32,000 nucleotides of DNA from positions 55,136-87,135 of the forward strand of contig NZ_QKOB01000006.1 of assembly GCF_003226535.1 (NCBI RefSeq), read 5' to 3'. Both the position numbers and the translations under genes were made by a program. Positions 9,529 through 16,067 of this stretch are shown piece by piece (positions within the stretch are counted from its first letter, which is position 1; every line of letters starts with the position of its first letter). The stretch comes from Meiothermus sp. Pnk-1. Lineage in GTDB: Bacteria > Deinococcota > Deinococci > Deinococcales > Thermaceae. The notes below the pieces were generated by a model that was not told the DNA's origin, did not search any database, and saw nothing but the letters and a program-made list of their open reading frames with translations.

Positions 9529-9560
9529 CGGCAGCCCGGCGACAAAGGGGATGCGATAGA

Positions 9561-9585
9561 CATCCTAAGTTATTTGTCAAGCCTC
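9561..9585. repeat. left att-like direct repeat (attL candidate)
   Basis: CATCCTAAGTTATTTGTCAAGCCTC aligns with 16036-16059 (CATCCTGAGAAATGTGTAAGACTC) at 19 of 24 columns with one 1-nt gap. Confidence 0.6.
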
Positions 9586-9594
9586 ATTTACAAC

Positions 9595-10503
9595 TCACCT
9601 AACACACACAGCCCACGCCGCGCGTGCTAAACGATGCGCCACTGCAACCAGGGCTAGCTTTTTAGGCTTGCCCGAGTCCACAAGGCGGCGATACAAAGCA
9701 GCTTGTACGGAGTCGGTACGGGTCGCGGCTGTCGCTGCGAGGTAGTAGCTAGCGCGGAGCATGGGCGGGCCAATGCGGGAGATACGGGCGCTAGCGTCCA
9801 TCTCTCCAGATTGGTAGATGCGCGGAGTAAGCCCGGTGTAAGCCGCGTACGCCCTCGCCGAGTGGAAGCGCCGCAGATCGCCCGAGTAGGCCAAGAGCTT
9901 TAGCGCGAGGGTGGGGCCAATGCCCGGCAGGGTTTGCAGGGCTGAAACCCACGAAGCAGCTAGTGGATATGCCGCAACAATGGCTCGTGCCTCAGCGTAC
10001 AGGGCAGCGCGTAACGACTGAATCGAATCAGGCACAGACAACGCAAACTCATGCACATGTGGGTGGGCGTAGCGCCAAGCGTGCAAGCGGTTGAGAGAGG
10101 CTGTGCGCTGCGTGTTCAGACCCTCGGCAAATCTGACCAGGAGCGAGGCCAGGTACAACGCCTCAGGCAACGGCTCATAAGGTGTGAGATCGGCTCGATA
10201 TTGAGCCAGAAAGCGGGCGAGTAGGCGAGCGTCCGCCTTATCGGTCTTATTGCGGGTGAGGAGTGATCTAGCGTAAGCCCGAACCTGCAAAGGGTTGACA
10301 ACGTAAACTGCGAACCCGGCCCGGTGTAAGGCGTAGGCCAAAGGCCGATAGTAGACCCCGGTAGCCTCCATCAGGACAGCCGCATCAGCAGGCAATCGTG
10401 AAACTAGCGCAGCTATGCCGTCATACGTGTTTGGAAACTGTAGCAACTCATCTGCTATAGCTACGTCCAAGCGAGAGCGGGAGATGTCAACGCCAACAAA
10501 CAT
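9595..10503 (-). CDS. IS110-family transposase (DEDD RuvC-like domain plus C-terminal Tnp domain)
   Basis: 302 aa. MFVGVDIS (Asp), VLMEATGVYY (Glu), NKTDKADARLLA (Asp, Asp), C-terminal LPGIGPTLALKLL and YQSGE (conserved Ser). Confidence 0.9.
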   Translation of the reverse strand: MFVGVDISRSRLDVAIADELLQFPNTYDGIAALVSRLPADAAVLMEATGVYYRPLAYALHRAGFAVYVVNPLQVRAYARSLLTRNKTDKADARLLARFLAQYRADLTPYEPLPEALYLASLLVRFAEGLNTQRTASLNRLHAWRYAHPHVHEFALSVPDSIQSLRAALYAEARAIVAAYPLAASWVSALQTLPGIGPTLALKLLAYSGDLRRFHSARAYAAYTGLTPRIYQSGEMDASARISRIGPPMLRASYYLAATAATRTDSVQAALYRRLVDSGKPKKLALVAVAHRLARAAWAVCVR

Positions 10504-10554
10504 AAGTAGGGCGCGGGAGCCCTACGGCACTCTTACACGCGACCAAAAAGGCCA

Positions 10555-10563
10555 ACATCCTAA
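10555..10563. repeat. internal copy of the att core (ACATCCTAA)
   Basis: Exact 9-mer shared with 9560-9568. It starts 52 nt upstream of the transposase ATG. AGGCCAA precedes it and recurs at 10602-10608. Confidence 0.5.
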
Positions 10564-10606
10564 ACGCCCATAGGCTAGGCCACGCTATCGCACGACCACG
10601 CAGGCC

Positions 10607-10617
10607 AAGACTCTTGA
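10607..10617. repeat. 11-mer identical to the host flank next to asnS
   Basis: AAGACTCTTGA at 10607-10617 equals 16053-16063 exactly and is in the same orientation. Confidence 0.5.
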
Positions 10618-10642
10618 CGACCAAACCCGCGCCCAGCACAGA

Positions 10643-10873
10643 CTAACGCCTGTATCCCCTAGGACGCAACTTGGGTTGATAGGGGCAGGGGCCAGAATAG
10701 CGACAGATGCGCCGCCCCTCACGCAGAGCAGCCACCTCAAGGGTATTCAGAGGCTCACGGCAACGAGTACAGCGAACACGGGTATCAGGTTGCAGGGAGC
10801 GCCCAGGGCCAGCTAGAGAGCGAATCATCCAGCCTATCCAGAGGATCACCAGCAGGAGCAGGAGCAGGCTCAC
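10643..10873 (-). CDS. small membrane protein (pXI-like anchor?) with a Cys-rich tail, overlapping the zot 3' end in the +1 frame
   Basis: GTG-initiated 76-aa ORF. It has an N-terminal membrane span SLLLLLLVILWIGWMI followed by CxxC...Cx5C. It overlaps zot by 89 nt. No clear RBS. Confidence 0.4.
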   Translation of the reverse strand: MSLLLLLLVILWIGWMIRSLAGPGRSLQPDTRVRCTRCREPLNTLEVAALREGRRICRYSGPCPYQPKLRPRGYRR

Positions 10874-11714
10874 ACGGAGATTCTAACCGCTCACGCAGCA
10901 GATCATGCGGTTGTTTGCCCTCACGGTAGGCACTCGCTAGGTCGGAGATGGAGAGATGAGGCATCCCATCCCGAGGCCCCGGAGCATCACGACGGCCCCG
11001 GAGCTTGGATGCGTCCCAGGCTAGGCCCATCCGGTCAAAGATGGCCCGCTTTTTCGGGTCTAGCTCACGCTGGAGCCGGACTATAGGCGGCTCAAAAATC
11101 GCGTATGTGTCGTAACACGCCGCCGCCATCGGATCGAGGGCCACAACGTCATTACGCGCTACGCCCTCGAAGATGCCCTTGGCCTGACGTTGCATCATGC
11201 CGATGGACTCATCCATGATGGACGTGTAGCGCAGAAGTTTCCGCCCGCGCACCCAGGGATACGTAATCACGCGGAGCCAGAACGGAGCCGGACGCGCCCA
11301 GAAGACGAAGGCTACCAGATCGCGCACAATCGCATCCACCGAGCCGTAGCGCTGTGTAGCTAGCAGCACGTCCACGCCTGTCTTGCGATGCTGGCTCCAG
11401 AACGCGATGACCTCGACCGGGATTAGGTCAAACTGACGCGAGGGAAGCCACATATGGGCCTCGTCAAACAGTAGCAGGCCATCATGGACGTTGAGCAGTT
11501 CGTTATAGTCCCGTATCTCCCGGATACTATCAGCCCTCAGAACCGCTTCCCGATGATCCAACTTGGCGCGGAAACGAAGCCAGTAATAGACATTTTCCCT
11601 AATAAAGCCGAAATTGGCCCATACGGTACGCCCCCGAGCCAAGGCGTGAAGGCCGCGATGGACGAGCATGTAACTCTTTCCAGAGCCGGGAATGCCGATG
11701 TACGCCTCGATCAT
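10785..11714 (-). CDS. zot: Zot / pI-like inovirus assembly ATPase
   Basis: Walker A GIPGSGKS at the N-terminus, Walker B LLLFDEAH and QHRKTGVDVLLATQ (Zot-family pattern). ATGA overlap with the upstream gene. No membrane span in this frame. Confidence 0.85.
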   Translation of the reverse strand: MIEAYIGIPGSGKSYMLVHRGLHALARGRTVWANFGFIRENVYYWLRFRAKLDHREAVLRADSIREIRDYNELLNVHDGLLLFDEAHMWLPSRQFDLIPVEVIAFWSQHRKTGVDVLLATQRYGSVDAIVRDLVAFVFWARPAPFWLRVITYPWVRGRKLLRYTSIMDESIGMMQRQAKGIFEGVARNDVVALDPMAAACYDTYAIFEPPIVRLQRELDPKKRAIFDRMGLAWDASKLRGRRDAPGPRDGMPHLSISDLASAYREGKQPHDLLRERLESPCEPAPAPAGDPLDRLDDSLSSWPWALPAT

Positions 11715-12139
11715 CTACCCCCCCTGATAAAGGTGATGGCTCGCCAGAGTGCCATGAGCCCGTAAAATCCCGCCCAGGCCGAGCCGAGCGTAAGGGCCTC
11801 ACTGATCGGCAGTATTTGGTTAGCCGTGTTGAAGGCCCCTATAGCAGTAGAGGCCCAACCAGGCGGGTCGGGGGGCATAGCCGGGAGCAGGCCAACTAGG
11901 ATACTGAGGAAGCCAGTAACCAGCTTGACCACGCCCGCGATAAGCCAGCCGATGAGCCCTAGGCCCCATTCCAACAACTGATGCAGGAGCCCTAGACCCC
12001 AGTTCAAGACGGCAAGGACAAGCCCCCAGACCCAGCCCCAGACCGTTTGAACGATGCCAACGAACCAGCCCGTCAGGGCGGAGAACGTGCCCTGGAACCA
12101 ATCGAGGATTGAGCGGAGTGCGTTTAGGATTATCTGCAT
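11711..12139 (-). CDS. pVI-like polytopic minor coat/assembly protein
   Basis: 142 aa, Trp/Gly/Leu-rich with several membrane spans. It lies immediately upstream of zot and is coupled to it, the position held by gene VI or DUF2523-type genes in inoviruses. Confidence 0.6.
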   Translation of the reverse strand: MQIILNALRSILDWFQGTFSALTGWFVGIVQTVWGWVWGLVLAVLNWGLGLLHQLLEWGLGLIGWLIAGVVKLVTGFLSILVGLLPAMPPDPPGWASTAIGAFNTANQILPISEALTLGSAWAGFYGLMALWRAITFIRGGR

Positions 12140-12152
12140 ATCTCCCCCCTAC

Positions 12153-12357
12153 TCACATGCTCATTCGCCCGCTGCGCGAGAGTGTACGGTGAGGCCCCGG
12201 CCTACGCGCAAGGGTCCGCTTCGCCGCGCCCGCATGTCCAAACCCCGGCTTCCTGCGTGCAGTAAACGTGCGTGATGTGGTGCAGCGTGCGCGCCCTTGC
12301 GCTACGGCCACCCCACCGGATAAGGATTGTTGCAGCGGGCGAAAAAATAGCATGTGA
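12153..12357. repeat. long imperfect inverted repeat filling the pIII-like / pVI-like intergenic region
   Basis: TCACATGCT (12153-61) pairs with AGCATGTGA (12349-57). TCGCCCGCTGC (12165-75) pairs with GCAGCGGGCGA (12332-42). GCGCAAGGG (12206-14) pairs with CCCTTGCGC (12294-302). The arm spacings are similar. Confidence 0.6.
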
Positions 12358-13812
12358 TTAGCGCTGTACATCCAACCCCCGGCGCACGATGGTAAATCCG
12401 AACGTCAGCAAGAGCCCGCCCAGCATGAAGGGGCGTAGTTGCGTTGCGGCTTGCCAGACGGGATTGCCGCAGATGTTGACGGTAGCCGACCACTGACCGA
12501 TTGTTAGCTGAGGAGCCGGACAGCCCCCGCTATCGCTGGTGGACGGAGTACGGAGCCAGCGCACGACACCAAACGGAAACTTGTCCATAGCTTGCTGCTT
12601 GAGTTGCTCTATGGACTCTCGCATAGACTGCATAGCCTGATCCCACGGCGTTTGCTGTAGCTGCGGAGCCTGGAACTGAGGCAATGTGGGATCATTGGGC
12701 TTTTGCAGACCCGGCAGGGAAGGAGTGCCCGGAGGCCCCGGCCACGTCAGATCATCCTTAGGTTGCTCATTCGTACACTTCGAGGCTGGATCACGCGGAT
12801 CCGAGCCGCAGCGTAACTCTTGATCATCCGGAAAGCCGTCCCCGTCGGAATCCGTGCCGGGATCTTTCCCAGGCTTAGAGTTAGGATCATAAGGATCCGT
12901 CCCCGCCTGCTTTTCCTCCTGATTCGTGTATCCGTCCCCGTCGTCGTCCCGATTCGGATCAGGATGGGAGTTAGGATCATTGATCCCGTCAGGCCAAGGG
13001 CGCTGTTTCTCCATCCAGTCAGGCCAGCCGTCGCCGTCGGTATCCACTGACTTATCGGTATACGGATTATCCGTCCATTGATTCGGATTAGGCACAGGAT
13101 CGAGGCGCACCCCAGGATAGGGATTAGACGGAGAGCCGGGCGGCGTGTCCTGAATGTAGCGAGCGACAGCCGCTTTGACTCCCTCAGCCGCGTCGGGATG
13201 CGACTGCAAAAACTCCGGGAGCGTCTCTGGCGGATGCTTAGGCATCGTTGACTTTTCGACGCGCTCGACTCCATCAGGATAATGCAGCTTAGCGTTGCGT
13301 TGCCACTCGTAGCGATAGCCATATTGGGACTTCAGATACTGCTCGCACTGCAACAAGAGTTGCTCCTGAGTCCCGCCGGGGCCGCGAAACGAATGAGTAT
13401 AGGGCGGATCAGTGGAGCGCACGTAAGGGGTTGCCCCCAGAACAGAACAGCGAACCTCGCCCATTTGCCAATCATAATCAGGAGGGATGTACTGAACTCC
13501 GACTATGACGGCTTCCCAGTCATAGAGTAAATGTGACGCCCACGCGTCCAACGACGTCCCAGTTTGCTGCTTGAGGGACTCGTAAAAATAGTTAAGGGCT
13601 GTATAAATAAGCGTAGATCCTAGGATTATTGCGCCGCCCCAGCGCACATAGCGCCCGAACGTTGCCTGTTTAGCGAACTGATTGTTACTCCACTGCAAAA
13701 TCTCGTTATACGTCATCCCCTGCACAGTAGTCCTAACAACATCCTGCACAGGAGCCGCGAACGAAAAGGCCCCGGCGACCAGGGCCAGGGCCAAGAATCG
13801 CCGGAGCCGCAT
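12358..13812 (-). CDS. pIII-like adsorption/minor coat protein with thrombospondin type-3 (Ca-binding) repeats
   Basis: The start is moved to ATG 13812, giving signal peptide MRLRRFLALALVAGAFSFA. Three DxDxDGxxDxxE repeats are present (DTDGDGWPDWME, DDDGDGYTNQEE, DSDGDGFPDDQE). A C-terminal hydrophobic anchor (FMLGGLLLTFGFTIV) is followed by RRG. It sits directly after the coat gene. Confidence 0.65.
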   Translation of the reverse strand: MRLRRFLALALVAGAFSFAAPVQDVVRTTVQGMTYNEILQWSNNQFAKQATFGRYVRWGGAIILGSTLIYTALNYFYESLKQQTGTSLDAWASHLLYDWEAVIVGVQYIPPDYDWQMGEVRCSVLGATPYVRSTDPPYTHSFRGPGGTQEQLLLQCEQYLKSQYGYRYEWQRNAKLHYPDGVERVEKSTMPKHPPETLPEFLQSHPDAAEGVKAAVARYIQDTPPGSPSNPYPGVRLDPVPNPNQWTDNPYTDKSVDTDGDGWPDWMEKQRPWPDGINDPNSHPDPNRDDDGDGYTNQEEKQAGTDPYDPNSKPGKDPGTDSDGDGFPDDQELRCGSDPRDPASKCTNEQPKDDLTWPGPPGTPSLPGLQKPNDPTLPQFQAPQLQQTPWDQAMQSMRESIEQLKQQAMDKFPFGVVRWLRTPSTSDSGGCPAPQLTIGQWSATVNICGNPVWQAATQLRPFMLGGLLLTFGFTIVRRGLDVQR

Positions 13813-13826
13813 AGAAGCCCCCCGGA

Positions 13827-14048
13827 TTAGCCCTTGAGGAACTTCTTGGCGTAGCGCCAAGCCGCGCTGAGGCCGATAGTGAGCGCGAGCACGCCCACGC
13901 CAGCAGCAGCGATGCCGCCGATGTAGGTCATGACGCCCGTAGCGACCTGCCCAGCATTGAAGCTGGCATCTTCAGCAAACGCCCCAGCTAGCACGAGAGG
14001 AGCAGCCAAGGCAACCGAACGACCGACAAACACGCGCAGTTTCTCCAT
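13827..14048 (-). CDS. inovirus major coat protein (pVIII-like)
   Basis: 73 aa. Signal peptide ...LVLAGAFA | EDASFNAGQ, then an acidic mature N-terminus, a hydrophobic core and a basic C-terminus (RYAKKFLKG). GGAGGTG RBS. Confidence 0.8.
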   Translation of the reverse strand: MEKLRVFVGRSVALAAPLVLAGAFAEDASFNAGQVATGVMTYIGGIAAAGVGVLALTIGLSAAWRYAKKFLKG

Positions 14049-14080
14049 AGAACACCTCCATTGCCCACGGGCGATGCCCG

Positions 14081-14182
14081 TTAGAGCCTACGTAACACGG
14101 AGCGCAGGACCGAGGCCACCAGGCCAGCCCCTAGCCCCCACCAGAAGGCCTCAGCGATAAAGCGCCAGTCACCCGCAGTCAT
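14081..14182 (-). CDS. 33-aa hydrophobic peptide (pVII/pIX-like minor coat candidate; absent from the ORF track)
   Basis: MTAGDWRFIAEAFWWGLGAGLVASVLRSVLRRL. ATGA overlap with the upstream mini-ORF. Confidence 0.5.
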   Translation of the reverse strand: MTAGDWRFIAEAFWWGLGAGLVASVLRSVLRRL

Positions 14183-14283
14183 ACACGCCTAAACAGATTG
14201 CCGCCGTAGCGATACGCGGCTAAAAACGCGTAGGGAGCCGTGACCAACGCGAGAACCTTGAGGAACCAATCGAAAGGCTCCAT
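14179..14283 (-). CDS. 34-aa hydrophobic peptide (pVII/pIX-like minor coat candidate; absent from the ORF track)
   Basis: MEPFDWFLKVLALVTAPYAFLAAYRYGGNLFRRV. TAATG overlap with the upstream mini-ORF. Confidence 0.5.
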   Translation of the reverse strand: MEPFDWFLKVLALVTAPYAFLAAYRYGGNLFRRV

Positions 14284-14375
14284 TAGAAATCCCCCGCGAG
14301 AAGTCCCGCAATCATGCCGAGTCCGAAGGCCCAGACCTTGAAGCACTCGATCATGAAGACGGGATCAAGGGTCAT
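14283..14375 (-). CDS. 30-aa hydrophobic peptide (pVII/pIX-like minor coat candidate; absent from the ORF track)
   Basis: MTLDPVFMIECFKVWAFGLGMIAGLLAGDF. TAATG overlap with the stop of the 96-aa ORF. Confidence 0.5.
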   Translation of the reverse strand: MTLDPVFMIECFKVWAFGLGMIAGLLAGDF

Positions 14376-14665
14376 TAGGCTTTCTCCTTTACCGGAGCAA
14401 GTGGAGCCACAAACCGTGCCACCGTGACGAATTGTCGCGCGCTGTTTTTCTCGCGGAACCCATCCCTGACGCGCAAATCAATTTGCAGGTCATAGAGGCC
14501 CGGAAACGTGGGCATAGTCGCCACTACATCAGGATCCGCGTCAAGTTCAAGCACGTTCATCCCGCGGAACTCCGCATCCGTGGGCGTAGTGGCTACTAAA
14601 ACCTTGCCAAACCTGCGCCCATCCTTAGCCGTCCTAGCGCTTGCTCCAAGTACCATTAGGGTCAT
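14375..14665 (-). CDS. putative ssDNA-binding protein (gene V-like), assigned by position and size only
   Basis: 96-aa ORF with an AGGAGGA RBS, directly downstream of rep as in Ff phages. No motif recognised. Confidence 0.35.
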   Translation of the reverse strand: MTLMVLGASARTAKDGRRFGKVLVATTPTDAEFRGMNVLELDADPDVVATMPTFPGLYDLQIDLRVRDGFREKNSARQFVTVARFVAPLAPVKEKA

Positions 14666-14710
14666 ATATCCTCCTATATCGCGTTAGAAGTGCCGATAGG
14701 CACGCGATAC

Positions 14711-15394
14711 CTACACAACAGCCCCCGCGTAGCGATGGAACGCCCGAGAGTAGGACTCCCGGAACCGCGCCTTATCCAGTACCGGCAAATCCTCGGGAGC
14801 CAAACCGACTAAATAGCGAACACGCCGGAGCCACGCCAGGAGCACAGACGGTGTAGGGGCGTGATGATGCAGGCCGAGCGACGCAGCAGCGGAAACGATG
14901 CAACCGATGGCCTGAGTCAACAACTGAGGAACACTAGCCAACGGCGAGCGAGCACAACGGACTACCTGAGCAGTCCCCGAGGAGTCGGGAGCGTCAAAGG
15001 CAGACAACACAAGTCGCCAGAGAGGATCAAACGGACGATTGCGGATTGTTTGAGTGTCCGAATCCTCACGCAGAGAGAGCCAAGAGCCCGCCAAATAGCG
15101 CCAGATAGCCGGGAGATGTTCCGCGAGGGTGTACCAGTTGCGCAGATCGCCCGCCCCTACATCCATAGTTGACAGAGCATCCGCCCTAATCTGGAACTCG
15201 ACGCGGATCACGTGCCCGCTGGGGTTGCCGTAGCCCGCAAGAGTGAGCTTAGCGCCGTAATCCGTGCGCGCCTGTATCGTCTTCGAGTAGATACGTGCTA
15301 GCAAATCGCCGGAGCCGAAACGAAACCCGGACCAGTTAGGCCCCCGGTAGTGAACCTCAACAGGGTGTACCTCATAGGCGGGTACCTCGTGCAT
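14711..15394 (-). CDS. rolling-circle replication initiator (Rep_trans-like), C-terminal part of a split gene
   Basis: Contains GDLLARIYSKT, resembling the catalytic-Tyr R-I-Y-x-K motif of pT181 RepC / RstA-type initiators. Deleting one 11-bp repeat copy joins it to 15298-16038. Confidence 0.6.
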   Translation of the reverse strand: MHEVPAYEVHPVEVHYRGPNWSGFRFGSGDLLARIYSKTIQARTDYGAKLTLAGYGNPSGHVIRVEFQIRADALSTMDVGAGDLRNWYTLAEHLPAIWRYLAGSWLSLREDSDTQTIRNRPFDPLWRLVLSAFDAPDSSGTAQVVRCARSPLASVPQLLTQAIGCIVSAAASLGLHHHAPTPSVLLAWLRRVRYLVGLAPEDLPVLDKARFRESYSRAFHRYAGAVV

Positions 15395-16038
15395 AGCGAC
15401 CCCCGTGTTACCCCCGTGTTACCCGTAAGGGGGTCGCCGTGGCTGCCCCCACGGCTGGCCGCTGGCGCGCCCAGCGCGTGGGAGCCATCCAGGTAGACCG
15501 ACCGCGAGCGAGCCCGCGAAACGAAACGCCCTAGGTCATCCAGGCTGAGGGGTGTATCCACCTCGACATCCGCAAACAAGTCAATACGCGACACTTGGAC
15601 GCGCTCAGGCTCAACTCCGACAAGATAGCTGAGGGTATCGGAAAACATAGCAACCACAGCCATAGGGTCACGGGCGCAAGCCGCCATGTATCGACCCGAT
15701 ACTTCCACGTAGGCGTGTACCTGTCCGGGTTTACAGGTAGTGGGCCGAGGCTGAGTGAGGGAGATCGAGAACATGCCCCCTTGAAACATCAACATCCAGC
15801 GGAACTTTCGCCCAGGCCGTACCTGTGCCACCTCGTAGGCGCAGCGCTCGTCATCATCCCCTAGAGGATTCCAAAGCCACATGTAATCGTGAATCCCGAG
15901 AAAGTGAGCATCCCCCTCTTCCCGGTACTCGTCTAGCGCCGCATCCAATCGCGCGGTGAAGTCCTCGGGAAGGCGGTAGTTTTGGCCCCAGGAAAGCCAG
16001 AAGATAAAGGTGTCTGTTCCGCTGGCTAATAGCTTCAT
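15298..16038 (-). CDS. rolling-circle replication initiator (Rep_trans-like), N-terminal part of a split gene
   Basis: Contains VSRIDLFADVEV (R-x-D-L-A-x-D-type motif). After the 11-bp duplication the frame runs on for about 40 out-of-frame codons. Confidence 0.6.
   Translation of the reverse strand: MKLLASGTDTFIFWLSWGQNYRLPEDFTARLDAALDEYREEGDAHFLGIHDYMWLWNPLGDDDERCAYEVAQVRPGRKFRWMLMFQGGMFSISLTQPRPTTCKPGQVHAYVEVSGRYMAACARDPMAVVAMFSDTLSYLVGVEPERVQVSRIDLFADVEVDTPLSLDDLGRFVSRARSRSVYLDGSHALGAPAASRGGSHGDPLTGNTGVTRGSLCTRYPPMRYTLLRFTTGGLTGPGFVSAPAIC
15400..15421. repeat. perfect 11-bp tandem duplication (CCCCCGTGTTA x2) inside rep
   Basis: Read directly at 15400-15410 and 15411-15421. It lies in the loop of the hairpin GCGACCCCC (15396-404) / GGGGGTCGC (15429-437). 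Confidence 0.9.
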
Positions 16039-16059
16039 CCTGAGAAATGTGTAAGACTC
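16036..16059. repeat. right att-like direct repeat (attR candidate)
   Basis: CATCCTGAGAAATGTGTAAGACTC. Its first three bases are the complement of the rep ATG. Confidence 0.6.
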
Positions 16060-16067
16060 TTGAAGGT

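Follow-up and report, generated by a model that had tools for sequence, protein, structure and literature searches.

A probable bridge RNA encoded beside the IS110-type recombinase of a filamentous prophage in Meiothermus sp. Pnk-1

We analysed a stretch of 32,000 nucleotides from Meiothermus sp. Pnk-1 (contig NZ_QKOB01000006.1, positions 55,136 to 87,135; referred to here as the window), which contains an integrated filamentous prophage with an IS110-type recombinase gene at one end. The minus strand of the window at 10509–10634, directly upstream of this gene, very probably encodes the bridge RNA of an IS110-type module that the phage uses as its lysogeny system, and the sequence comparisons reported below make it very likely that the phage picks its integration site by RNA base-pairing. 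The evidence consists of exact junctions, an empty site, four guide matches, covariation between guides and sites, compensatory changes in two stems of the RNA (P1 and P4) and the domains and catalytic residues of the recombinase. A bridge RNA at this position had been proposed in an earlier note made from the DNA alone; the conserved fold, the four guides in the geometry of IS621 and the covariation bear this proposal out. The bridge RNA of IS621 shows a dual-strand guide geometry, with loops for target and donor (PMC11208160).

Architecture of the probable bridge RNA

The bridge RNA gene spans about 126 nt on the minus strand, from the 5′ to the 3′ arm of stem P1, and its 3′ end lies 5 nt before the recombinase ATG (10503–10501), on the same strand. 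When the guides were held unpaired, ViennaRNA returned the same three-way junction for the window and most of its relatives; the unconstrained fold has a minimum free energy z-score of −2.57. P1, which closes the whole RNA, is formed by GGGCGCGGG (10626–10634) and CCCGCGCCC (10509–10517).

The first arm of the constrained fold, the target-binding arm (10578–10622), is closed by P2 (5′ arm GGUCG, 10618–10622; 3′ arm UGGCC, 10578–10582) and contains an internal loop of 11 nt on each side. The left target guide (LTG; TCAAGAGTCTT, UCAAGAGUCUU as RNA; 10607–10617) runs in the sense of TCAAGAGT, the left half-site of the host, and of the core CT. It is followed by the apical hairpin P3 (GGCC-UGCGU-GGUC, 10594–10606) and by the right target guide (RTG; TGCGATAG, UGCGAUAG as RNA; 10585–10592), which is complementary to the top strand of the core CT and ATCGCA. 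The donor-binding arm (10518–10576) is closed by P4 (AGCCU, 10572–10576, with GGGCU, 10518–10522) and P5 (GGCG, 10565–10568, with UGCC, 10526–10529). Here the left donor guide (LDG; TTTAGGATGT, UUUAGGAUGU as RNA; 10555–10564) has the sense of the phage right end TTAGGATGT, directly before the core, and is separated by the apical hairpin P6 (UGGCC-UUUUU-GGUCG, 10540–10554) from the right donor guide (RDG; CGTGTAAGA, CGUGUAAGA as RNA; 10531–10539), complementary to the top strand of T-CT-TACAC. All of these parts lie on the minus strand.

Several motifs listed in the earlier note find their place in this architecture. The heptamer AGGCCAA, described as abutting both att-matching segments, is present at 10549–10555 and 10602–10608 and forms the 5′ arms of P6 and P3, respectively. 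The direct repeat CCACGC-N10-CCACGC is likewise present (10580–10601; 0.03 expected) and corresponds to the stem arms flanking the RTG. Of the region 10504–10784, which had been taken as non-coding, 10509–10634 is the RNA, and 10643–10784 is part of a 76-residue open reading frame (ORF) described below.

The hairpin GTAGGG-N8-CCCTAC, also correctly reported at 10506–10525, is terminator-like on the minus strand in a terminator scan, and it competes with the 3′ arms of P4 and P1. Across the relatives it is 80% paired, against 65–72% in registers slid by one or two columns. We rejected it as the main structure because it cannot form in the closest relative (L083; elements and sequence records are given L numbers) and competes with the covarying stems; it may be an alternative terminator-like fold or functionless.

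A −10-like box, TAGTCT (TAnnnT; 10640–10645, minus strand), lies 5 nt upstream of P1 and is the putative promoter of the RNA. In every relative a TAnnnT hexamer (TAGAAT, TAAGAT, TAGGAT etc.) is found 3–8 nt upstream of P1, and the bridge RNA is possibly transcribed from this conserved box.

Junctions and guide matches

The empty site was identified in two assemblies (L120 and L121) that encode an identical KdpD protein with asnS just 43 bp downstream, and it reads ...ggggatgcgatAGactcttgaagg.... On the window strand the attB is therefore GGGGATGCGAT-AG-ACTCTTGAAGG. Comparison with the occupied site shows that the insert is exactly 9560–16055, with AG (CT in RNA sense) at both junctions (9558–9559 and 16054–16055), so that the insertion is scarless and the core stands at both ends. 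The left junction had previously been placed 10 bp away from this position. The empty site also rules out an earlier junction in which TAAG was shared at both ends, and the CTTA found in both the donor left half and the right donor half-site (RD) is shared by coincidence.

In RNA sense, the host target is TCAAGAGT-CT-ATCGCA, within the 43-bp kdpD–asnS spacer, and the donor site is TTAGGATGT-CT-TACAC, between the recombinase stop codon and gene II of the circular phage. The longer forms are AACTTAGGATGT-CT-TACACATTT for attP and CCTTCAAGAGT-CT-ATCGCATCC for attB. The donor site of the window was first predicted from the attP pattern of related phages, in which the guides of loop 2 (left in sense, right in antisense) meet at CT.

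We compared the region flanking the recombinase gene with both junction contexts in an exact-match search covering both polarities. The LTG matches the host left half-site plus CT at 10 of 10 positions and, as drawn, would pair with the bottom strand. The RTG is the reverse complement of 9552–9559 (8/8); the LDG is the reverse complement of 9560–9568 and matches the phage right end at 9/9; and the RDG segment GTGTAAGA at 10531–10538 is the reverse complement of 16049–16056 (8/8; T-CT-TACAC). The recombinase-proximal junction (9552–9568, minus strand), composed of the host right target and core (9552–9559) and the phage left donor half-site (9560–9568), scores 14/14 against LDG plus RTG, with 9 for the best background site. 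The gene II-proximal junction (16049–16063, minus strand) consists of the phage right donor half-site and core (16049–16055) followed by the host left target (16056–16063) and scores 13/14 against LTG plus RDG, the background range for junction scores being 9–10.

Two of these matches had been recognised before as segments identical to att or host DNA, and both hold. ACATCCTAA occurs only at 9560–9568 and 10555–10563 (0.08 expected by chance), and AAGACTCTTGA only at 10607–10617 and 16053–16063 (0.00 expected). The former is not host DNA as had been supposed; it is the last 9 nt of the prophage and thus part of the donor. Of the 11-mer at 16053–16063, one nucleotide belongs to the phage, two form the core and eight are host sequence. 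The two segments are therefore the LTG (target) and the LDG (donor) and not two halves of attB, as their colinear polarity had suggested. That concern about polarity goes back to a left junction set 10 bp off and to the recognition of just two guides out of four; the opposite-polarity RTG (10585–10592) and RDG (10531–10538) had been missed.

Taken alone, one 8-mer match carries no significance, about 0.7 being expected by estimate for a 297-nt region against an 81-nt context. What makes the guide matches significant is that they fall exactly in register at the crossover core, together with the comparative tests described next.

Guides and sites covary across related elements

Relatives were collected by a protein search, which defined a close recombinase family in Thermaceae; their contigs were fetched, and viral and metagenome collections were scanned in addition. 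A contig scan with the recombinase returned only relatives of 30–40% identity, which were of no use for covariation. Upstream of the recombinase in every relative, a regular expression identified the module GGYCG-N11-GGCC-loop-GGYCG-N8...N10-UGGCC-loop-GGYCG-N9, and its matches gave 20 distinct RNA sequences. The module is carried by the phages phiOH16, Zuza8 and Zuza27 and by about 15 further prophages, which occupy different sites. These sites include the interval between recJ-side genes and a hisA-like gene in Calidithermus timidus, a position beside an MFS transporter gene in a Meiothermus genome, and positions next to rad52-like, response-regulator and pseudouridine-synthase genes. The guides of the relatives differ in line with their loci, and in phiOH16, Zuza8 and Zuza27 the loop-2 guides match the attP between the recombinase gene and gene II.

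The covariation test compared cognate with non-cognate guide–site matches by permutation, in 8–11 independent elements at different loci. The junctions of the relatives were placed either from the donor side alone or by their distance from a conserved TTGACA, the latter reading the donor half-sites independently of the guides. Anchoring left-end junctions on the 6-nt RD alone was abandoned because it finds the RDG gene itself, and joint LT/RD sites (left target plus right donor) or the TTGACA position were used instead. All four relations tracked their sites. Against the right target, the RTG scored 5.09 of 6 in cognate and 2.30 in non-cognate comparisons (n = 11, p at most 5e-6). The corresponding values were 7.0 of 8 and 3.16 for the LTG and the left target (n = 8, p about 5e-5), 7.67 of 8 and 3.96 for the LDG and the left donor (n = 9, p about 2e-5), and 5.25 of 6 and 2.89 for the RDG and the right donor (n = 8, p about 3.5e-5). 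Covariation of guides with targets across homologous elements, which the earlier note had named as a check, is thus observed, with different targets accompanied by different guides that follow them.

At the prophage ends of the relatives, the guide-predicted sites scored 11–14 of 14, against 8–10 for the best unrelated site. Several of the mismatches are compatible with G-U pairing, for example a G in the LDG of L093 opposite a top-strand A. The core is visible in the guides themselves: all RTGs end in AG, all RDGs hold AG at the same position, and LTGs end in CT or CTT in all elements except L090 (UU).

In one clade, comprising Zuza8, Zuza27 and their relatives (L081, L082, L094 and L101–L112), attP is inverted relative to the RNA and the recombinase, and the recombinase-proximal junction of its prophages reads LT-core-RD and not LD-core-RT (left donor, core, right target). 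The window, L080, L083, L087, L090, L092, L093 and L100 have the non-inverted arrangement.

Individual elements showed further features. The target of L110 (about 2940–2965) is a perfect 20-bp palindrome, CGCCTAAGTATACTTAGGCG, so that one and the same sequence is read by its LTG on one strand and by its RTG on the other. L102, a viral contig of 5,688 nt (as the phiOH3 record), retains at 1–300 the 5′ arm of P1 and all of the target-binding arm, with the sequence of phiOH16. It lacks the donor-binding arm and residues 1–246 of the recombinase, and its attP is intact. To judge from this sequence, it looks like a single deletion took half the RNA and most of the enzyme together. phiOH3 likewise appears to be a natural deletion.

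Conservation of the fold

A covariance model (R1) was built from 18 sequences, the window sequence among them. It matches the window at 10510–10633 on the minus strand only, with 100.7 bits, a score obtained with the window in the training set. In all loci R1 finds the element on one strand only, and it also detects the more distant L113 and the truncated L102. In the MAFFT alignments A2 and A3, P1 and P4 were one or two columns off register between clades, and the sequences were therefore realigned with R1 to give alignment A4.

In A4, which is model-fitted, 97.0% of cells are paired and 17 pairs changed on both sides, a result reached by none of 500 shuffles; slid registers gave 36–54% pairing. 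In the plain MAFFT alignment A3, 91.8% of cells are paired and eight pairs changed on both sides, again with 0/500 shuffles. The conserved fold that had been called for was therefore found, with compensatory changes. These are concentrated in P1, where all eight modelled pairs change on both sides (22 distinct sequences, A4), and in P4, where all four do (A4). The arms of P1 read GGGGATAG/CTATCCCC in phiOH16, GGGGCAGG/CCTGCCCC in Zuza27 and GGACGCGG/CCGCGTCC in L095. Over the 22 distinct sequences, P2 is 99% paired and P3, P5 and P6 are 100% paired; P3 is present in 22 of 22, with a conserved G-U pair. Conserved G-U pairs make the structure strand-specific. The near-invariance of P2, P3, P5 and P6 would suit a scaffold recognised by the recombinase.

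A weak partial match to R1 (26 bits) was also found in L074 (9842–9908), a distant Duganella IS110 element whose recombinase is 33% identical; it lies just upstream of the recombinase and includes a P1-like stem and one guide loop. This hints that the GGYCG/GGCC scaffold may be older than the Thermaceae clade.

Points against the bridge RNA and alternative explanations

A number of observations weigh against a bridge RNA at this position. The model-fitted alignment leans towards the structure used for fitting, and P2, P3, P5 and P6, nearly invariant with fixed G-U pairs, contribute little covariation; these four stems could equally be a conserved protein-recognition motif. Pairing of the LDG with the core is non-canonical (a U-G wobble, then a mismatch), unlike that of the LTG. 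A by-eye check for handshake guides beside RTG and RDG gave no consistent pattern: the AC after the RTG in the Thermus clade could pair with donor GT, whereas the CG of the window clade cannot. A two-hexamer sigma-70 scan upstream of the RNA called nothing, and no −35 is recognisable there.

Some sites fit their guides imperfectly. L094 has 5/8 and 4/6 matches and L103 has 4/6. The left junction of L090 (3660–3705; AGTACACTTTAGGTTACAAG) is irregular and not reconcilable with its guides: the LTG-like and RD-like parts are about 5 extra nt apart with no CT between them, and the element adjoins another integrase-bearing island. L090 may be immobilised or rearranged. The guides of L109 (about 77 and 6739) are of the L101/L106 type (GGGGTAAG / TGGGTG), and its site better fits the L104-type guides of a sister element (CCGGTAAG-CT-TGGGAA). 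Either this insertion tolerated 2+2 mismatches or the host site has diverged since.

Nor was a resemblance to described families detected in the RNA sequence, although such a resemblance tests similarity and does not define a bridge RNA. Rfam 15 gave no match for the window RNA at the gathering threshold or at E values up to 10. R1 in turn did not detect the IS621 RNA in L122, an E. coli record that holds a copy of IS621 inserted at ATCAGGC-CT, with TGTAT following. The 177 nt upstream of the recombinase in this copy agree with the IS621 bridge RNA. As neither Rfam nor R1 detected sequence similarity between the window RNA and known bridge RNAs, its relationship with IS621 rests on architecture, recombinase and guide logic.

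We weighed three other explanations. In the first, the module would act as DNA, either as duplex arm-type sites bound by the recombinase (GGCC/GGTCG) or as folded, packaged single-stranded DNA that pairs with the att sites. The setting is suggestive, as the element is a filamentous phage. In Ff phages the packaged strand has the same sense as the genes, and by this analogy the packaged strand here would share its sense with the genes and the proposed RNA. The almost invariant P2, P3, P5 and P6 would also be expected of a protein-binding DNA motif. However, LDG and LTG have top-strand sense and need the bottom strand, so that donor and target must be duplex, as in IS621. A simple duplex-DNA site is excluded by the covariation of P1 and P4 as base pairs and by G-U pairs that exist on one strand only. 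The −10-like box also keeps a fixed distance upstream of P1 in all relatives, and members of this recombinase family use RNA where, in the accounts cited, they have been tested (PMC11208160, PMC11187229). We regard an action as DNA as very improbable.

In the second explanation, to which we give a slim chance at most, the structure would be a cis-acting element, such as a packaging signal, a replication origin or a leader or attenuator for translation of the recombinase, and its att matches would be incidental. It does occupy one of the few non-coding stretches of the phage, it stops just short of a recombinase ATG that has no obvious ribosome-binding site, and it includes the terminator-like alternative hairpin at 10506–10525. 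A leader or origin, however, predicts nothing like four guide–site relations that covary across loci. The truncated L102 lost the donor-binding arm and most of the recombinase gene and kept every phage gene, and phiOH3 (record of 5,688 nt, as L102) still forms plaques (PMC11437467), which argues that the donor half is needed neither for replication nor for packaging.

The third explanation is plain att homology, which was the caveat of the earlier note, or chance: leftovers of past recombination or random matches in G+C-rich DNA. It would be compatible with the estimate given above for a single 8-mer, but it is barely credible for matches that stop exactly at the core and whose places within the conserved structure are constant. 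The matches also run in both polarities, which the IS621 model demands, and shift with their sites in about 11 independent elements, as the permutation tests show.

The recombinase and a proposed integration mechanism

The bridge RNA as read here would serve the recombinase encoded immediately downstream (9595–10503, minus strand), an IS110-family DEDD/serine recombinase of 302 residues with the domains PF01548 (2.6e-23) and PF02371 (9.9e-23). It is 34% identical to the IS621 recombinase (E 1e-43), and D6, E46, D88, D91 and S232 align with D11, E60, D102, D105 and S241 of IS621. Four of these five catalytic residues are invariant across 24 relatives and D6 is nearly so. In the protein search, its counterparts in Zuza8, Zuza27 and phiOH16 showed 57–59% amino acid identity.

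Based on these features, we propose the following course of integration. In the double-stranded circular phage, the donor TTAGGATGT-CT-TACAC between the recombinase stop codon and gene II would be recognised as attP by the donor loop (LDG and RDG). LTG and RTG would act likewise on TCAAGAGT-CT-ATCGCA in the kdpD–asnS spacer of the host. The recombinase, presumably bound to the RNA, would then exchange strands at the common CT, which would insert the whole 6.5-kb phage with CT at both junctions. Excision would be supported by the same RNA.

The prophage and its host locus

The window consists of G+C-rich host DNA (kdpA, kdpC and the gene for a KdpD N-terminal domain, then asnS) with a segment of lower G+C inside. 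The integrated filamentous prophage occupies 9560–16055 on the minus strand (6,496 bp). G+C drops across it, and the empty site in L120 and L121 lacks exactly these bases. In phage sense, its genes on the minus strand follow the order gene II, coat genes, pIII-like, pVI, Zot/pI, bridge RNA and recombinase. The Zot/pI assembly gene (10785–11714, minus strand) encodes a Zot domain (Pfam), and a pVI-like gene and a pIII-like gene with TSP3 repeats lie on the same strand of the lower-G+C segment. The prophage is syntenic with the annotated Thermus phage records of phiOH16, Zuza8 and Zuza27 and shares the characters of phiOH16/Zuza-type inoviruses, namely a gene set on one strand, a length of about 6–7 kb and an IS110-type recombinase at one end.

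The 76-residue ORF (10643–10873, minus strand) overlaps the end of the Zot/pI gene at its 3′ side and is read in the +1 frame with respect to that gene. A transmembrane helix is predicted at the N-terminus of its product, which also has a basic tail and a Cys4 zinc ribbon (CTRC...CRYSGPCPY) and gave no Pfam match. The protein is conserved in nine related elements despite diverged DNA and is absent in phiOH16. The ORF might encode a small membrane protein of its own or extend pI by a frameshift. The stop codon of this ORF overlaps the −10-like box of the RNA.

On the host side, the likely start of asnS (ATG 16069) follows just 13 nt after the crossover core, and phage DNA consequently replaces everything upstream of the asnS ribosome-binding site upon integration.

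A possible promoter split by the crossover

A TTGACA hexamer resembling a −35 element is present at the phage right end (9575–9580, minus strand), separated from the core by 15 nt. Once the phage is circular, TACACA (16048–16053) would lie opposite it across the core, upstream of gene II (ATG 16038). The window's own −10, TACACA, is weak (3/6); the corresponding attP promoter of phiOH16 is TTGACA-18-TACAAT, with 11/12 matches (L080 1116–1145). In 16 of 17 elements TTGACA keeps a fixed spacing from the core: 15–16 nt in eight, and 13–14 nt in another eight, which belong to a clade with inverted attP. L103 fits neither register. The −10 follows directly on the other side of the core. The split promoter faces gene II, 5.4 kb upstream of the RNA. 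From this arrangement we infer that the crossover splits the gene II promoter, in which case integration would silence phage replication and excision would restore it.

Implications

We lean, by a narrow margin of belief, towards RNA-guided lysogeny being general among inoviruses with IS110 recombinases, from the Thomixvirus-like phages of Thermus and Meiothermus to Neisseria-type oral inoviruses, with the core placed in a split replication-gene promoter and with a Thermaceae version that is thermostable and small. Were this the case, the target loop would set the integration site, the donor loop would recognise the phage's own attP, and the Thermaceae system, at 302 residues plus an RNA of about 125 nt, would amount to a programmable recombinase that is thermostable by nature and exceptionally small. 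The present locus joins two facts that the papers searched had not brought together, phage integration by IS110 transposases, known since 2005, and guidance by bridge RNAs, known since 2024. With its relatives, it also gives site choice an explicit basis in 8+2+6 bp of RNA–DNA pairing, which would explain why sister phages occupy different loci. The split promoter suggests a simple coupling of the integration state to phage replication. About a dozen natural guide/target variants offer a resource, and phiOH16, Zuza8 and Zuza27 can be cultured in a thermophile that is amenable to genetics. Bridge recombinases are under development as tools for genome engineering, where a compact system that presumably withstands heat and naturally carries a cargo of several kilobases would be of interest.

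Comparison with known systems

The seekRNA of IS1111 is, as outlined in PMC11187229 (Siddiquee et al. 2024), likewise a short RNA from the non-coding region of an element with a DEDD transposase, with segments that match both strands of the target. In the same account, however, it lies downstream of the transposase and its guide order is reversed. Elements of that type are marked by a long non-coding region downstream of the transposase and by long subterminal inverted repeats. The RNA of the window precedes its recombinase gene, whose stop codon is followed by just 35 nt of the element, and this does not fit a seekRNA of the IS1111 type. The bridge RNA of ISPpu10, in the description available for it (bioRxiv 10.64898/2026.03.19.712850), also has no counterpart of the 5′ stem-loop of IS621. 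According to that description, however, ISPpu10 is an insertion sequence whose target DNA must also provide a hairpin. No such need is evident here, although one relative, L110, targets the 20-bp palindrome mentioned above.

The closest phages are phiOH16, Zuza8 and Zuza27 (Thomixvirus; PMC11437467), which share the gene order, the recombinase family and the RNA module between the assembly gene and the recombinase. The window element differs from them in belonging to another clade, with its closest relative in Calidithermus timidus (82%), and in its target and donor sequences. Integration of the Thermus phages by an IS110-family transposase has been inferred in PMC11437467, which mentions neither an RNA nor att sites. 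Nf/MDA-type prophages of Neisseria, which encode an IS110-family (Piv-like) transposase (Kawai et al. 2005, as cited in PMC11437467), are similarly described as inoviruses with their own IS110-family recombinase at the prophage end, after the Zot gene; their recombinase is distant (about 31% identity) and their hosts are unrelated.

A comparable order was identified in Inovirus D_HF3_10 from human saliva (L123), where Zot, a non-coding region, the transposase, attP and the replication gene follow one another. At its end, the non-coding stretch that separates Zot from the transposase reads TAACAGTATCA-TTGGCAAAAGCCA-TTATTGCAAGG (1340–1399), which resembles the IS621 donor loop, the donor loop being the part that was examined. 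Downstream of the transposase (2400–2440), ACAGTAT-CT-TGTAT lies inside TTGACA-17-TATATT. A second donor-loop-like copy is present at about 2462–2500. This one oral inovirus suggests that the arrangement may be widespread among inoviruses. The literature searched, a limited collection, yielded no link between bridge RNAs and filamentous phages, including those of the Neisseria type.

The system that the window element resembles most in its logic is IS621 of the IS110 subgroup (Durrant et al. 2024, PMC11208160; Hiraizumi et al. 2024, PMC11208158). Both have the two recombinase domains and the five catalytic residues, and in both the RNA gene lies upstream of the recombinase and abuts its ATG. 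The RNAs share two internal loops, target first and then donor; in each, the guide on the 5′ side (9–10 nt) is sense to the left half-site and core, and the one on the 3′ side (7–8 nt) is antisense to the core and right half-site. Insertion is scarless at a CT core, and in the circular form a −35 at the right end would face a −10 across this core. In IS621 the equivalent junction promoter of the circular form drives the bridge RNA. Here, by contrast, the putative promoter precedes the phage replication gene and the RNA seems to own a −10 box. The RNA of the window is also shorter (about 125 nt against 177 nt), has no 5′ stem-loop and is folded into a three-way junction closed by a long-range stem; its LDG is without canonical core pairing, and attP is inverted in one clade. 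IS621 is an insertion sequence of 1.3 kb, whereas the cargo here is a complete 6.5-kb inovirus whose 'left end' measures 5.4 kb, with the RNA 5.4 kb from the crossover. The bridge RNA described here thus joins the known IS110 kind in an unreported setting, with a whole inovirus as its cargo.

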